DNA of 64,000 bases. It comes from a virus. The notes under the pieces were generated by a model. The model was not told where the DNA came from. It worked only from the letters and a program-made list of their open reading frames with translations, and searched no databases. The translations under genes were made by a program, and so were the position numbers. Of the stretch, positions 3,257 to 40,587 are shown piece by piece. The stretch's first letter is position 1. Each line of letters opens with the position of its first letter. Location: positions 3,390 through 67,389 of IMG/VR virus record IMGVR_UViG_3300029568_000024; one strand, written 5' to 3'.

Positions 3257-4135
3257 TTATACAGGATAACTCTTGAACATATTATAGTAATTGTGATACT
3301 GCGCTCTTCTGTTTAACCACCAGATCTTCTGCATCTCTTTAAAGTCTGGAGTATTTACAAATCCAAGTGCGTTATTTCTTGCAGCTCTCAAACGTCCTTC
3401 TATTAGACCTAATTGATTAGCCACATTCTCTCCGGCAAAAACCATGTTCTCAAGAATCCTCTGCTTCAAGGCATACTCGTAGTATTCATTGCAATAAGGA
3501 TGATCCAGTACAAGCAATCTTCCTTGAGAGTCTTCCATGGCTCCTTGGAAACTGATATATACTTTACCTGTTGTAAAGTTTGTAAGAAGATAACCGTCTT
3601 TTATTTCAGCAATATCTGATGCTTGCTCTCCGACATTTGGACAATCACAAGTAGCATCATTTACATTCTGGATCCTCAAAGGATAGAATGCAGTGTAAGT
3701 TCTATACTCTCCACCGCCAATCTTCTGAACTAACTGATACTGATTCTTGTCTTCACAGGTCTTAATAACACATACCTCTTTACATTCCGGATCATCACAT
3801 GGTCCGGACTCATCTGGAGCTGGTACATAAGGCACAGGGTTATCTGTCTCTACATGTGTACCAGACGGCATCTGAGTAGAGATGCTATAGTCACCACACA
3901 TAAAAGCATAGTTCAAAGAAAAGAAATCACTTGGAAGCTTGGTCTTACCATGCTCTACATCCAGCACCACTTCTTTGGTTCTATTGATTCTTAAACCAAG
4001 ATCATAATTTACTCTCGTTGCAACTTTAATTAACTGCTGAGGTTCAATCATCCCCTCCATTGCATATGTAGAAAAATCTACTGTTACATCTTCAAGTAAC
4101 TGATCAAAAGTTCTATACTTATGTGATACGCTCAT
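3257..4135 (-). CDS. Putative tail ring/tubular protein with Cys-rich insertion
   Basis: 292 aa, directly upstream of the stabilization gene; helical N- and C-termini as in crAss-like ring proteins; internal PCDDPECKEVC segment. Confidence 0.5.
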   Translation of the reverse strand: MSVSHKYRTFDQLLEDVTVDFSTYAMEGMIEPQQLIKVATRVNYDLGLRINRTKEVVLDVEHGKTKLPSDFFSLNYAFMCGDYSISTQMPSGTHVETDNPVPYVPAPDESGPCDDPECKEVCVIKTCEDKNQYQLVQKIGGGEYRTYTAFYPLRIQNVNDATCDCPNVGEQASDIAEIKDGYLLTNFTTGKVYISFQGAMEDSQGRLLVLDHPYCNEYYEYALKQRILENMVFAGENVANQLGLIEGRLRAARNNALGFVNTPDFKEMQKIWWLNRRAQYHNYYNMFKSYPV

Positions 4136-12950: not shown

Positions 12951-12961
12951 ATAATATACAA
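12951..12961 (-). promoter_or_regulatory. Putative late promoter motif TTGTATATTAT
   Basis: Exact 11-mer, intergenic, 43 nt upstream of the 12908 ATG; five exact copies seen, all upstream of genes. Confidence 0.65.
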
Positions 12962-13993: not shown

Positions 13994-14004
13994 ATAATAT
14001 ACAA
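13994..14004 (-). promoter_or_regulatory. Putative late promoter motif TTGTATATTAT
   Basis: Exact copy 41 nt upstream of the 13953 ATG, just after a terminator. Confidence 0.65.
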
Positions 14005-15626: not shown

Positions 15627-15637
15627 ATAATATACAA
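15627..15637 (-). promoter_or_regulatory. Putative late promoter motif TTGTATATTAT
   Basis: Exact copy 61 nt upstream of the 15566 ATG. Confidence 0.65.
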
Positions 15638-20786: not shown

Positions 20787-20797
20787 ATAATATACAA
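20787..20797 (-). promoter_or_regulatory. Putative late promoter motif TTGTATATTAT (overlaps a TATATTTG box)
   Basis: Exact copy 38 nt upstream of the scaffold ATG. Confidence 0.65.
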
Positions 20798-37697: not shown

Positions 37698-38276
37698 ATG
37701 CTTACCCGCAAACAACAACAATTACTTGAGAAACAAAAGCGCATTGAAGAATTAAAGAATAGAGAAGAACGTTACACTTATTTGGGTTTGCTTTCTGATT
37801 ATCAGTTACATCCACCAAGTGTAATACAATCTCTTAGTTACACAAAGCTCAATCCTCATCAACATTTTTTGTTTAAGCGTGTACTACACGGTTTAAACAT
37901 GTACAAAAAAGATGAGATTGAAAGCATGCATTGGGATAAAAAACGCAGGATTAAAAAGGTCTGGCGTAAGGGGCAGGATACTATCAATGAGATGAAGCAA
38001 TATGTTGCTTATGTAAGATCTCAAAAGATATTCTGTCTATTTAAGCACTCTAATATGGGTGTAAATCTTCTCAATGAACCCTTTGAATACATACCTGATT
38101 ATCAGAATAAGCAGTCCTTAAAAGAACTAGGATTGACTTATGAAGATTTGATAATCAAGTTCATTGGCAATGGTCTTCTACCCAGGAATTATTTATCTTT
38201 AAAGTCCAATGGCCATAAGGAAAGTATCAAAGAAGATGGCTCAAATAAACAGAGAGTACTCAAAGCTAAGGCGTGA
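37698..38276 (+). CDS. Conserved hypothetical protein
   Basis: 192 aa basic. Confidence 0.6.
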   Translation: MLTRKQQQLLEKQKRIEELKNREERYTYLGLLSDYQLHPPSVIQSLSYTKLNPHQHFLFKRVLHGLNMYKKDEIESMHWDKKRRIKKVWRKGQDTINEMKQYVAYVRSQKIFCLFKHSNMGVNLLNEPFEYIPDYQNKQSLKELGLTYEDLIIKFIGNGLLPRNYLSLKSNGHKESIKEDGSNKQRVLKAKA

Positions 38277-38484
38277 GTTCTTACTAGATAGATCTGTTTG
38301 TAGAGCTAATATCTATAGGTGTAGTGTACAGGCAACCGATATACATCACATGAAAGGTAGAGGTAAGTATCATTTAGATACCTCTACCTGGTTGCCAGTA
38401 TGTAGATCATGTCATACCTACATAGAAGAGCATCCAGAAGAAGCTATTGAATTAGGTTTTTCACAAAAAAGAAATGATGTCTAA
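38209..38484 (+). CDS. HNH-family nuclease-like protein
   Basis: C..C..ATDIHHMKGRG..WLPVCRSCH. Confidence 0.75.
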   Translation: MAIRKVSKKMAQINREYSKLRREFLLDRSVCRANIYRCSVQATDIHHMKGRGKYHLDTSTWLPVCRSCHTYIEEHPEEAIELGFSQKRNDV

Positions 38485-38520: not shown

Positions 38521-38697
38521 CACCTAAACACCAAAGAGAGATGAAAAATTCAGATTGGAGAAACCTTTAACACCGACAAAGAATAATAATTAACATCAAA
38601 GTCATACAACCCCAATAAATACAGGGCATAAGAGCGAACGTGCTTACTCAGTTTATTAGCAATGTATGCGAAACACTTTTAACACCAAAGAGAGATG
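38521..38697 (+). repeat. Three copies of a leader-like repeat (core AACACC-A-AAGA, two ending AGAGAGATG)
   Basis: 38521..38543, 38560..38586, 38670..38697; a fourth related copy at 45523..45552. Confidence 0.6.
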
Positions 38698-38793
38698 AAT
38701 GATGAAGAAAAAGGTAGGGCTGCGTTTGTTATCAGTATACTAATGATCATATCTTTTATCTTTGGCTTTCTGCTGGGTTCTTACTCAGCATAA
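38695..38793 (+). CDS. 32-aa single-TM peptide (not in track)
   Basis: MNDEEKGRAAFVISILMIISFIFGFLLGSYSA; ATG is the end of repeat copy 3. Confidence 0.5.
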   Translation: MNDEEKGRAAFVISILMIISFIFGFLLGSYSA

Positions 38794-38827
38794 GCACTCA
38801 TAGCTCAATTGGATAGAGCATCAGATT
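38794..38827 (+). tRNA. 5' half of an interrupted tRNA gene
   Basis: GCACTCA TA GCTC AATTGGATA GAGC A TCAGA TT: acceptor 5' strand, D arm, anticodon-stem 5' strand. Confidence 0.8.
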
Positions 38828-38829
38828 AC

Positions 38830-38840
38830 TTGTATATTAT
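38830..38840 (+). promoter_or_regulatory. Late promoter motif TTGTATATTAT in front of the homing endonuclease
   Basis: Exact match to the motif upstream of structural genes; 25 nt before ATG 38865. Confidence 0.65.
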
Positions 38841-38864
38841 TATAAGTCTTTCTATATTTACTGT

Positions 38865-39275
38865 ATGGAACATCATACAAAAACATTAGGAGATTTAGGT
38901 GTATTAAAAGCACAATTGGATTTATTTGAAAAAGGATTTATAGTATCAGTACCACTTACAGAGCATGCACCTTTTGATTTAGTCATTTATAAGGATGGTG
39001 TATGTAAAACCGTTCAGGTTAAATCAAGGAGTGTTACCTCAAGAGGTACTATTGAAATTCAATTCAGAAATGTTTGGAGTGACAGAAATGGTATTCATTC
39101 ATCAGAAGTAGATAAAAATGCAATAGATTTATATTGTGTATATTGTCCTGAAACTGATTTATGTTATTATTTTAATCCATCAAATTTTGATAAATCTATT
39201 ACGCTTAGGATAGAACCACCGAAAAATAATCAATTAACAGGAGTACATTTAGCTTCTGACTATACGGCCCTATAG
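38865..39275 (+). CDS. PD-(D/E)XK homing endonuclease, I-Ssp6803I-like (PF11645-type)
   Basis: LGDLGVLKA..VSVPL..APFDLVI..VQVKS..IDLYCVYCPETD..LRIEPPKNNQ; stop codon lies inside tRNA-Arg. Confidence 0.8.
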   Translation: MEHHTKTLGDLGVLKAQLDLFEKGFIVSVPLTEHAPFDLVIYKDGVCKTVQVKSRSVTSRGTIEIQFRNVWSDRNGIHSSEVDKNAIDLYCVYCPETDLCYYFNPSNFDKSITLRIEPPKNNQLTGVHLASDYTAL

Positions 39276-39339
39276 TTCAACTGAATAGAACAACTCACTT
39301 CTAATGAGTAGGTTCCAGGTTTGAATCCTGGTAGGGTCA
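39266..39339 (+). tRNA. tRNA-Arg(TCT)
   Basis: GGCCCTA/TAGGGTC acceptor, GTTC/GAAC D stem, ACTCA-CTTCTAA-TGAGT anticodon arm, CCAGG-TTTGAAT-CCTGG T arm. Confidence 0.9.
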
Positions 39340-39344
39340 CGATG

Positions 39345-39387
39345 TACAAGCTGAGGGTTCAAGGTTCGAGTCCTTGTGGGTGTACCA
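39345..39387 (+). tRNA. 3' half of the interrupted tRNA gene, with CCA
   Basis: TACAA GCTGA GGGTT CAAGG TTCGAGT CCTTG TGGGTGT A CCA; TGGGTGT pairs with GCACTCA at 38794. Confidence 0.8.
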
Positions 39388-39471
39388 GGCCGGGTGATGA
39401 AATGGTAGACATGAGGGACTTAAAATCCCTTGAGCATTGTGCTCGTGCGGGTTCAAGTCCCGCTCCGGCTA
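39388..39471 (+). tRNA. tRNA-Leu(TAA)
   Basis: GGCCGGG/TCCGGCT acceptor, AGGGA-CTTAAAA-TCCCT, long variable arm GAGCA/TGCTC, GCGGG-TTCAAGT-CCCGC. Confidence 0.92.
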
Positions 39472-39486
39472 CAACTAAATCTTAAT

Positions 39487-40587
39487 ATGGAAACATTATC
39501 ACGTGAAGACGTTCAGAAGCAAGCATTAGATCTGTTGAATCAGAATAAAAGATGCGGCTTAGGTATATCAATGGGTGTTGGTAAGACACGTATTGCTATA
39601 CAACATATACTAAAAAACTATAATCCTCTGCAAAGTTTACTGGTGGTTGTACCTAAGTTATCTATCAAGGAATCTTGGATAGATGAGCTTAATAAGTTAG
39701 AGGTTCATGATAGGTTGATCGAACACATTGAATTTACCACATATCTGTCCCTTAATAAGAAGAACCCTCATGACTATGACACAGTATATCTTGACGAGTG
39801 TCACAGCTTATTAGAATCACACAATACTTTTCTATCTGTATTCAACGGACCTATTATTGGTCTAACTGGTACACCTCCTCGCAGAAGAAGTTCTGAAAAG
39901 TATCGTATGGTAAACAAATATTGTCCCATCAAGTTTGAGTTCTCGGTAGATGAAGCTACAGATAGTAAAATCTTAAATGATTATCTAATCGTAGTGCACA
40001 ATCTTCGTCTGTCAAAACTCAAAACATTCAAGAAGAAGAATAAACAAGGTGGTTTCTGGTTTACGTCAGAACAAAAAGACTATGAGTATTGCACAGAGCG
40101 TGTTATTACAGCTAATACACCTAAGCAAACTCAGTTTGCATCTATCATGCGTATGAGAAGCATTATGTCATACCCTACTAAGGAAGAATATGTCAAGTCA
40201 TTCCTAAAGAGTGTAGACCATAAGTGTATTGTCTTTGCTAATACACAGGATCAAGCTGATAGAATGTGTAGTCATAGTTACCACTCTGGTAATCCTAACT
40301 CTGACCATAACTTAGAACTCTTTAGTGATGGTAGAATAGATAAGCTCTCTTGCGTTCTACAGTTATCTGAGGGTGTAAGTATACCTAATCTAAAAGAAGG
40401 CATTATAATGCATGCCTATGGCAATGAGAGAAAGACATCTCAAAGGATTGGTAGACTACTTAGATTAAATCCGGATGATAGGGCAACCTGTCATATCTTG
40501 TGTTATAAAGACACAATTGATGAGCACTGGGTCAATACAGCTCTCAAGAATTTTGATAGTAACAAAATCAAGTATGTAAATATCTAA
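39487..40587 (+). CDS. Superfamily 2 (DEAD/DEAH-like) helicase
   Basis: True start 39487 (track start overlaps tRNA-Leu); MGVGKT, LDECH, LTGTPP, QRIGRLLR. Confidence 0.85.
   Translation: METLSREDVQKQALDLLNQNKRCGLGISMGVGKTRIAIQHILKNYNPLQSLLVVVPKLSIKESWIDELNKLEVHDRLIEHIEFTTYLSLNKKNPHDYDTVYLDECHSLLESHNTFLSVFNGPIIGLTGTPPRRRSSEKYRMVNKYCPIKFEFSVDEATDSKILNDYLIVVHNLRLSKLKTFKKKNKQGGFWFTSEQKDYEYCTERVITANTPKQTQFASIMRMRSIMSYPTKEEYVKSFLKSVDHKCIVFANTQDQADRMCSHSYHSGNPNSDHNLELFSDGRIDKLSCVLQLSEGVSIPNLKEGIIMHAYGNERKTSQRIGRLLRLNPDDRATCHILCYKDTIDEHWVNTALKNFDSNKIKYVNI

Follow-up and report, generated by a model that had tools for sequence, protein, structure and literature searches.

The homing endonuclease I-Ssp6803I is encoded in a group I intron of cyanobacterial tRNA-fMet (Bonocora and Shub 2001, as cited in PMC3984707). 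SegB of phage T4 is a free-standing homing endonuclease in a tRNA gene cluster, capable of intronless homing (PMC2330249), and T4 has further genes of this kind, the seg and mob genes (PMC2988022). The locus described here resembles each of these in part. It lies in a 64,000-nt stretch of viral DNA (below, the window: positions 3,390 to 67,389 of the IMG/VR virus record IMGVR_UViG_3300029568_000024, which is 73.5 kb long and rated 62% complete), and consists of a tRNA-Arg(UCU) gene split by a cassette that carries an endonuclease gene of the I-Ssp6803I family and a second, complete tRNA-Arg(UCU) gene. We consider it likely that this is a ribozyme-less homing cassette, which disrupts its target gene and makes up for the loss by bringing a spare copy. 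To our knowledge, homing endonucleases are thought to persist in essential genes only inside self-splicing introns or inteins, or else between genes; the locus would represent a third solution, in which the gene is broken and a spare is brought along.

A tRNA-Arg(UCU) gene with and without an insert

The locus covers positions 38794-39472 of the window, with the following features:

38794-38824, plus strand: 5′ remnant of the native tRNA-Arg(UCU), tRNA nt 1-30 (acceptor strand, D arm, anticodon-stem bases 1-4); 31 of 31 nt identical to the uninterrupted gene at L002:795-825 and to L003
38825-39347, plus strand: inserted cassette, 523 nt, in place of native nt 31-36 (CCTTCT, including the anticodon TCT); boundaries from blastn against L002 and L003
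38825-38864, plus strand: cassette leader, 40 nt, with the promoter-like motif TTGTATATTAT (putative promoter) at 38830-38840
38865-39275, plus strand: homing endonuclease gene, 136 aa, PD-(D/E)XK, I-Ssp6803I family (PF11645), from Pfam, a match to PDB 2OST and invariant catalytic residues
39266-39340, plus strand: nested complete tRNA-Arg(UCU), the spare copy (ARAGORN; Rfam tRNA model, 65.7 bits)
39341-39347, plus strand: cassette tail, 7 nt (GATGTAC), part of the right arm of a 9-bp terminal inverted repeat
39348-39387, plus strand: 3′ remnant of the native tRNA-Arg(UCU), tRNA nt 37-76 with encoded CCA; 40 of 40 nt identical to L002:832-871
39388-39472, plus strand: tRNA-Leu(UAA), the intact downstream neighbour (ARAGORN, Rfam), a synteny anchor with uninterrupted relatives

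The nested tRNA's first 10 nt double as the last three codons and stop of the endonuclease open reading frame (ORF), and outside these two genes the cassette leaves just 40 + 7 nt. Much of this had been recognized in a first-pass annotation made from the letters of the window alone, including the PD-(D/E)XK ORF of the I-Ssp6803I family with its stop inside the nested tRNA, since borne out at 38865-39275, with the stop 10 nt into that tRNA, by a full-length PF11645 match and the match to PDB 2OST, and the complete nested tRNA-Arg(UCU), which ARAGORN also calls as tct at 39266-39340 and Rfam scores at 65.7 bits.

The same annotation had suggested looking for an uninterrupted allele in related phages, and there is one. 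With the neighbouring helicase as query, 29 related viral loci were found; in the closest two, L002 and L003, whose helicases are 98-99% identical to that of the window, an uninterrupted 77-nt tRNA-Arg(UCU) (tct by ARAGORN) stands directly before the same tRNA-Leu(taa). Homology to this intact allele ends at 38824 and restarts at 39348. The flanks are 86-93% identical by blastn, vs. 31 of 31 and 40 of 40 nt for the two tRNA halves. What has been lost between them, native nt 31-36, comprises C31, most of the anticodon loop, and the entire anticodon. Since the halves match the intact Arg allele of L002 and L003, the disrupted gene is a tRNA-Arg(UCU), the isoacceptor of the nested gene.

The 5′ half (given as 38794-38827) and the CCA-ended 3′ half (39345-39387) are thus where the first pass had placed them, and the insert between them is real, but its boundaries had been set 3 nt off on each side: it runs from 38825 to 39347 (523 nt) and replaces native nt 31-36, rather than lying cleanly in the loop. 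Joined at the earlier boundaries, the halves do make the 77-nt cloverleaf with an A31/G39 mismatch that had been described, and ARAGORN calls it tRNA-Val(tac). Whether the ancestral identity was Val or Arg, left ambiguous at the time, is settled as Arg by the tRNA-Arg(TCT) at the same place in L002 and L003, and the joined sequence owes its Val anticodon to chance at the junction. ARAGORN did not detect the split gene in the window even with long introns allowed. The split-tRNA arrangement is far beyond chance.

Both alleles can also be found in metagenomes. Twenty public runs from 12 studies (marine, estuary, freshwater) contain parts of the window, and contigs from four of these were placed on it. 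A 583-nt contig covering 38795-39377, and so spanning both junctions, is present in runs X1 and X5, which belong to two different studies. It has four differences to the window, all in the ORF: three are synonymous and one is D132N. These independent contigs across both junctions rule out an assembly chimera. A separate contig from X5 matches the window to 38824 and then continues with the native CCTTCTAAGCTGAGGGTTC, i.e., the intact allele, and contigs from X9 break exactly at 38824 and start exactly at 39348. Alleles with and without the cassette therefore coexist in nature. Contig depths (6.2 and 16.2 for the insert path vs. 62.5 and 144.3 for the shared left flank, rough figures only) suggest that the interrupted allele is in the minority in two samples.

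The endonuclease and its intron-borne relatives

The match of the ORF to PF11645 (PDDEXK_5) scores 125 bits against a cut-off of 26.1 and aligns residues 3-135 with profile positions 1-137 of 138. PDB chain 2OST_A, the structure of I-Ssp6803I, is matched with an E-value of 3.8e-5, aligning PFD38 and Q51-V-K53 with YD...QVK. D38, Q51, and K53 are invariant across 30 homologues, so that the D...Q-x-K motif of the restriction-endonuclease fold is present. There are 798 homologues at E up to 1e-3, the best of them 60-68% identical, and several carry the NCBI name “group I intron-associated PD-(D/E)XK endonuclease.” Close phage relatives were not found in INPHARED, where the sole match to the endonuclease gene is in a Synechococcus phage (65% identity), nor was the gene found in the records of four relatives, all of which are fragments.

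About 110 homologue loci were scanned with ARAGORN and a purpose-written split-tRNA detector, which had been checked on the window. In ~70 of 106 loci with a near full-length gene, the endonuclease gene is held by a split tRNA-Arg(UCU). In the intron-type loci the exons read ...CTT-intron-CTAA..., that is, the insert is at position 34/35, following a U and ending in G, and 20-21 of 21 stem pairs are kept despite differing exon sequences. The non-coding parts of these introns amount to ~140-200 nt before the ORF and ~90-100 nt after it. They are typically found in bacterial operons of the form Pro(tgg)-[Arg]-His(gtg)-Lys(ctt), Lewinella sp. LCG006 (L035) being a named example.

Covariation analysis of 62 of these introns, aligned with the ORF interior removed, gave a consensus fold of 50 pairs, 33 of which covary on both sides. 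P3 (CCGCAC/GUGCGG) encloses a P4-P6 domain; the ORF lies in the P6 loop, with its last codons, GTT CCG TAG (Val-Pro-stop), forming the 3′ strand of P6; and P7, P3′, P8, and P7′ follow in that order, P7 (GACUAU/AUAGUC) showing a compensatory UA-to-CG change in 12 of 62. In its topology this fold is a group I core, and GAAACCUAA, AUGGCAA, and GUAGAGACUA are motifs reminiscent of Azoarcus-type tRNA introns. Because ~70 of 106 genes sit in group I introns there, the anticodon loop of tRNA-Arg(UCU) can be regarded as the cognate homing site of this clade. The insert of the window is in the same loop as these ~70 interruptions at 34/35, and its enzyme would, by this context, cut tRNA-Arg(UCU) DNA at the anticodon arm. 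It is a compact candidate nuclease with a defined, if predicted, natural target, for which interrupted and intact alleles are both at hand.

It is possible to align the junctions differently, with the native CTT (38829-31) and C35 (39347) retained, which would put the insert exactly at the canonical 34/35 position with small scars. This is less parsimonious than the replacement of nt 31-36 described above.

As the first pass had supposed, the window itself has no such intron: there is no room for a ribozyme in the insert, and nhmmer profiles of both cognate intron flanks found no match in the window or in any of the tRNA-linked loci described below (types A and B), with E-values of 1e-20 to 1e-42 for the intron controls. 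An Rfam scan of 38600-39600 at E up to 10 showed no group I or other intron family, but Rfam was equally silent on true introns, whether given whole relatives or one intron's two flanks apart. Of the properties expected of a group I intron, a P3-P9 core with a P3/P7 pseudoknot is absent, and excision cannot restore the gene, native nt 31-36 being gone. At the end of the ORF, GACTATACG was considered as a possible P7 remnant and rejected: six of its nine bases belong to conserved Asp-Tyr codons, and it is absent from L032 and L140.

A self-splicing intron might still be cryptic, its ribozyme lying within the ORF or being built around the tRNA-like domain. The overlap of ORF and ribozyme core in the intron relatives lends this some appeal, as does the position of the insert after a T and up to a G when the earlier boundaries are used. 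However, the cognate ribozyme needs ~140-200 nt before the ORF and ~90-100 nt after it, where just 40 and 7 are free here; neither flank is matched by a profile; no excision point restores tRNA-Arg; and the nested element is a bona fide tRNA, down to a compensated 19:56 pair. We give this explanation almost no credence.

Relatives without a ribozyme fall into two arrangements, most of them in phage-like tRNA arrays. There is no room for a ribozyme in any of these loci, and a complete tRNA-Arg(tct) is always beside the endonuclease gene. In type A (the window, L032, L033, L140, L074, and L118/124/125) the endonuclease gene comes first and then the tRNA; in type B (L041-L056, L059, L063, L067, and L141) the tRNA is followed by a conserved spacer and then the endonuclease gene. 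The nearest endonucleases, at 68% identity, are those of L032 and L033, whose genes, like that of L140, immediately precede a tRNA-Arg(tct). The ORFs of the window, L032, and L140 all end ...CTA TAG within the tRNA acceptor stem, with the same 10-nt overlap. The protein C-terminus is Val-Pro in intron-borne genes, encoded by the ribozyme overlap, vs. Ala/Thr-Leu in type A genes of the overlap kind, encoded by the tRNA; in these cassettes the tRNA therefore holds the place of the 3′ part of the ribozyme. L032, L033, L140, L043, and L045 lie between genes and leave the target gene whole, whereas the ORF of the window splits its target.

A maximum-likelihood tree of 85 endonucleases (133 alignment columns, arbitrarily rooted) has the intron as its dominant state, with the tRNA-linked states scattered over at least two to three parts of the tree. 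The closest grouping of the window is with L032 and L067, within a supported clade to which the Lewinella intron (L035) and related introns from metagenomes also belong. Provisionally, like any count of switches from this tree, a spare tRNA appears to have taken the place of the ribozyme on at least two to three occasions within one endonuclease family, and both gene orders are represented. The clade is in any case seen in three states: within tRNA-Arg(UCU) group I introns, as a free-standing gene next to a tRNA-Arg(UCU), and nested together with a spare in a split tRNA-Arg(UCU). The path that evolution took between them can thus be followed in a single family.

Several other relatives have settings of their own. 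In L124/L125 and L118, bacterial-type Pro-[endonuclease]-Arg-His operons, the gene is between tRNA-Pro and an uninterrupted tRNA-Arg(tct); these genes nest in the tree among intron-borne genes of similar operons, which looks like an escape from intron to intergenic spacer in bacteria. Those on Bacillus-type contigs (L036/L037, L090, L110, L111, and L113; ~60% identity) have ordinary gene neighbours, with no nearby tRNA or intron; L110 and L111 have in-frame stops, and the Bacillus-type copies may be domesticated or decaying. In a viral tRNA array, ARAGORN finds a tRNA with anticodon tta, a stop-codon reader, at L057:903-988. Its “tRNA-Pyl(cta)” at L040/L070:1408-1481, with a loop reading CTTCTAA, is probably a mis-registered tRNA-Arg(tct) beside the endonuclease gene.

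The spare tRNA, sister cassettes and a possible route of spread

The nested tRNA forms a perfect cloverleaf and keeps A20, an Arg identity element in E. coli. At the tertiary 19:56 position it has A:U in place of G:C, both sides having changed. By score, fold, and this compensated pair it looks functional. It must also resist cleavage, because the element would otherwise destroy itself. The native allele's anticodon arm (GCATCAGCCTT / CTAAGCTGAGGG) is one base pair away from the commonest intron-occupied exon; compared with that exon, the nested tRNA has many changes (the D-stem end base, four of five stem pairs, and the start of the variable loop). On the strength of this divergence only, it is presumed refractory to the endonuclease.

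The leader contains an 11-mer, TTGTATATTAT, of which the window has five exact copies, mostly after a run of T:

12951-12961, 13994-14004, 15627-15637, and 20787-20797, minus strand: four copies of TTGTATATTAT, each 38-61 nt upstream of the start of a minus-strand structural ORF
38830-38840, plus strand: the copy of TTGTATATTAT in the cassette leader

In this phage the minus strand has structural genes and the plus strand has replication genes. The motif looks like the phage's own promoter element, possibly a late one, and by way of it the endonuclease may be transcribed together with the structural genes. A generic sigma-70 promoter scan at the leader gave no excess over chance. Conceivably, maturation of the spare tRNA by RNase P would limit the endonuclease as well: since the stop codon is inside the tRNA, the cut would fall upstream of it and leave an endonuclease mRNA without a stop, so that the two products would be coupled and held in check.

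The 9-bp helix that the first pass had drawn at the ends of the insert (38829-37/39342-50, behind an ATTA bulge) is present, and both it and the TCAG/CTGA stem are in the minimum-free-energy fold of the whole unit. However, three of its nine pairs (CTT/AAG) may simply be native loop bases that have stayed in place and that are self-complementary in the intact gene, and the promoter-like motif overlaps its left arm, so that it says little for a function at the RNA level.

More can be said of mobility from a sister cassette. A type B module is nested in a split tRNA-Arg(TCT) in L041/42/44, L048/50, and L049/51/53, always at one position and exactly 568 nt long. Between loci this cassette is 92-99.5% identical, while the flanks are unrelated (at most 44%, in forced alignment) and the outer halves are 55-89% identical. 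To judge by these comparisons, the sister cassette clearly travels from one phage to another, unrelated one in its nested form. The outer halves themselves are irregular. The 5′ half of L050 is a hybrid of the L048 and L049 types; the anticodon stem of L041 has two mismatches, with a 3′ strand of the type seen in L050; and L049, L051, and L053 have one 5′ half (1305-1335) and two 3′ halves (~1909-1945, right after the 568-nt insert, and 2055-2088), of which the proximal one mismatches the 5′ acceptor strand and the distal one fits. The L049-type cassette seems, then, to have arrived with a foreign 3′ half. In L063:1290-2120 (metagenome contig JACCDR011110006.1) a type B cassette has a decayed piece of a tRNA on its 5′ side and, on its 3′ side, a half that is not complementary to it. 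We interpret the hybrid and chimeric halves of the sister loci as marks of homing with co-conversion of the exons. As the halves in these loci are chimeric, mismatched, or decayed, they are evidently not kept functional.

Two further features of the sister loci may be mentioned. In L063 a promoter-like stretch of ~60 nt, together with the first tRNA bases, is duplicated, before the cassette and before tRNA-Leu(taa). In L041-L053 the 12 nt before and the 12 nt after the nested tRNA of the 568-nt cassette make up an inverted repeat, CTTAGAACAACC / GGTTGTTCTAAG, which extends the acceptor stem of that tRNA; it could be a processing signal or an insertion trace, and its analogue in the window is the 9-bp repeat at the cassette ends.

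A course of events can be proposed for the homing cassette. In a mixed infection, the endonuclease would cut the cassette-free tRNA-Arg(UCU) genes of co-infecting phages at the anticodon-loop DNA. The break would be repaired from the cassette-bearing genome, the tRNA halves and flanks serving as homology, and repair would copy the leader, the endonuclease gene, and the spare tRNA between the halves of the target. By splitting the recognition site, the insertion would confer immunity, but would destroy the resident tRNA as well; this loss would be offset by the cassette's diverged tRNA-Arg(UCU), restoring decoding of AGA/AGG, and not by RNA splicing, with the outer halves left as dead remnants. 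The six native bases could have been lost by imprecise repair at the first invasion, or by co-conversion from a donor with already diverged halves. One of the two models of the first-pass annotation had been a selfish cassette, lacking an intron, that breaks a target tRNA gene and supplies the replacement, and this model has been strengthened by a target of the same isoacceptor, endonuclease relatives at tRNA-Arg(UCU), and the presence of both alleles in nature.

The other model, a precursor processed by proteins to give two tRNAs, has fared badly, with the native anticodon and C31 gone and sister outer halves chimeric or mismatched. In its fuller form, RNase P and a 3′ nuclease would free the nested tRNA, after which a ligase, or annealing in trans, would bring the outer halves together, guided by the 9-bp helix. 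The halves are still perfectly complementary, the helix and the TCAG/CTGA stem do appear in the minimum-free-energy fold, and the joined sequence scores as a cloverleaf with ARAGORN. Yet any join would put UAC or an odd loop on the body of an Arg-type tRNA and leave the stem with a mismatch, and the identity of the halves to the intact allele would follow simply from a recent event: in the older sister loci (L041, L049, and L063) they are mismatched, chimeric, or non-complementary. No bulge-helix-bulge motif was seen in the sequence, and the helix owes three of its nine pairs to the native loop and its left arm to the promoter-like motif. Searches of the 73-kb record found no homologue of the RNA ligases Rnl2 or RtcB, a weak negative in a record that is 62% complete; a search of the phage record for Rnl1 also gave no match, but its controls were equally silent, making it uninformative. 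Rescue at the RNA level is, on this evidence, very improbable.

A more serious alternative to the homing cassette is a one-off capture, in which a free-standing module of endonuclease and tRNA, taken from the tRNA array of another phage, was pasted once, by illegitimate repair, into a break in the anticodon loop, and has since been subject to no homing, and at most to drift; the nesting would then be accidental. Several observations weigh in this direction. The cassette of the window has been found in one context only, with no donor and no second site. Its leader had no match in ~140 fetched loci, and exact-pattern scans of viral contigs gave no matches for the joined Val-type anticodon arm and none for the anticodon arm of the nested tRNA. 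The junctions are unclean, with six native bases missing and none of the precision of an intron, which fits a single imprecise repair as well as it does regular homing. The nearest relatives are free-standing rather than nested, and the cassette is apparently a minority allele in two samples. A separate point against the homing cassette is that the anticodon arm of the presumably immune spare, CTCA CTTCTAA TGAG, resembles intron-occupied exons of some relatives, e.g., L035.

On the other side, the sister 568-nt cassette moves, nested, between unrelated phages, and any active endonuclease that is nested between tRNA halves and cleaves intact alleles would home through normal repair of the breaks. 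The window's ORF is undamaged, with three of its four single-nucleotide polymorphisms (SNPs) synonymous, and the interrupted allele occurs in several studies and habitats. A one-off capture thus seems unlikely, if well short of negligible. As neither donor nor second site was found, the case for mobility of this exact unit rests on the analogy to the sister cassette and on the polymorphism.

Two small ORFs precede the split tRNA on the plus strand. One, of 91 aa (38209-38484), 300 nt upstream, is weakly matched in PHROGs (E 1e-6) by families of HNH endonucleases, which makes it a candidate for another small nuclease gene of the region. The other, of 32 aa (38695-38793), has a hydrophobic core and stops one base short of the tRNA 5′ half; it is kept in L002 and L003, with ~86-90% DNA identity.

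Comparison with known systems

Full-text literature searches found no description of an endonuclease and a spare tRNA nested in a split tRNA. We lean, if only somewhat, toward regarding the locus as one case of a general, unnamed class, “replacement-homing” cassettes, with which a homing endonuclease enters an essential RNA gene and which carry a spare copy of that gene instead of a self-splicing ribozyme. Such cassettes would explain some of the orphan tRNA halves and “pseudo-tRNAs” of phage and bacterial genomes, as well as duplicated tRNAs of the same isoacceptor in phage arrays. They also call for care in annotation, because joining the halves may yield a false tRNA, here a spurious tRNA-Val.

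With I-Ssp6803I the endonuclease shares its family (PF11645), its D...QxK motif, and, by prediction, its choice of target, DNA that encodes a tRNA anticodon loop; the nearer relatives of the window's gene are, moreover, also intron-encoded, in tRNA-Arg(UCU) at 34/35. The target differs, being tRNA-fMet there and tRNA-Arg(UCU) here, as does what follows insertion: in the window there is no intron, the gene is broken for good with its anticodon deleted, and a second tRNA gene is supplied in the insert.

The likeness to SegB and the other seg and mob genes of T4 is in an endonuclease gene that lies among phage tRNAs and belongs to no intron or intein, with (for the window, by prediction) the DNA of a tRNA gene as target; in spread, for the window a probable one, together with neighbouring tRNA genes; and in related phages that lack the endonuclease gene and have the locus intact. 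SegB, however, is a GIY-YIG enzyme encoded between genes, recognizing the T-arm of many tRNAs. The PD-(D/E)XK gene of the window is not between genes; it splits its target from inside, and is fused by an overlapping stop codon to a spare of the same isoacceptor.

Inserts that deal with the damage they cause may have precedents in protein genes. Paquin, Laforest and Lang are said to have described, in 1994, an insertion in the Allomyces mitochondrial atp6 gene that has a foreign C-terminus, and Friedrich et al., in 2007, reportedly described the nrdA gene of phage Aeh1, split by mobE. In these, as here, the insert carries or preserves the function that it disrupts, with no splicing. They involve protein genes, however, with partial duplications or split subunits, whereas in the window a whole RNA gene is replaced; and the clade of the window's endonuclease is also found in intron form, making the switch from ribozyme to spare gene traceable.

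Finally, Nanoarchaeum equitans and other archaea have split tRNA genes whose products are joined at the RNA level. The archaeal halves have complementary leaders and a bulge-helix-bulge that is cut by the splicing endonuclease, and give a functional tRNA. The window likewise has two complementary tRNA halves that are apart in the DNA, but it has no bulge-helix-bulge, its anticodon has been deleted, and joining would yield a Val-like product with the body of a tRNA-Arg and a mismatched stem.

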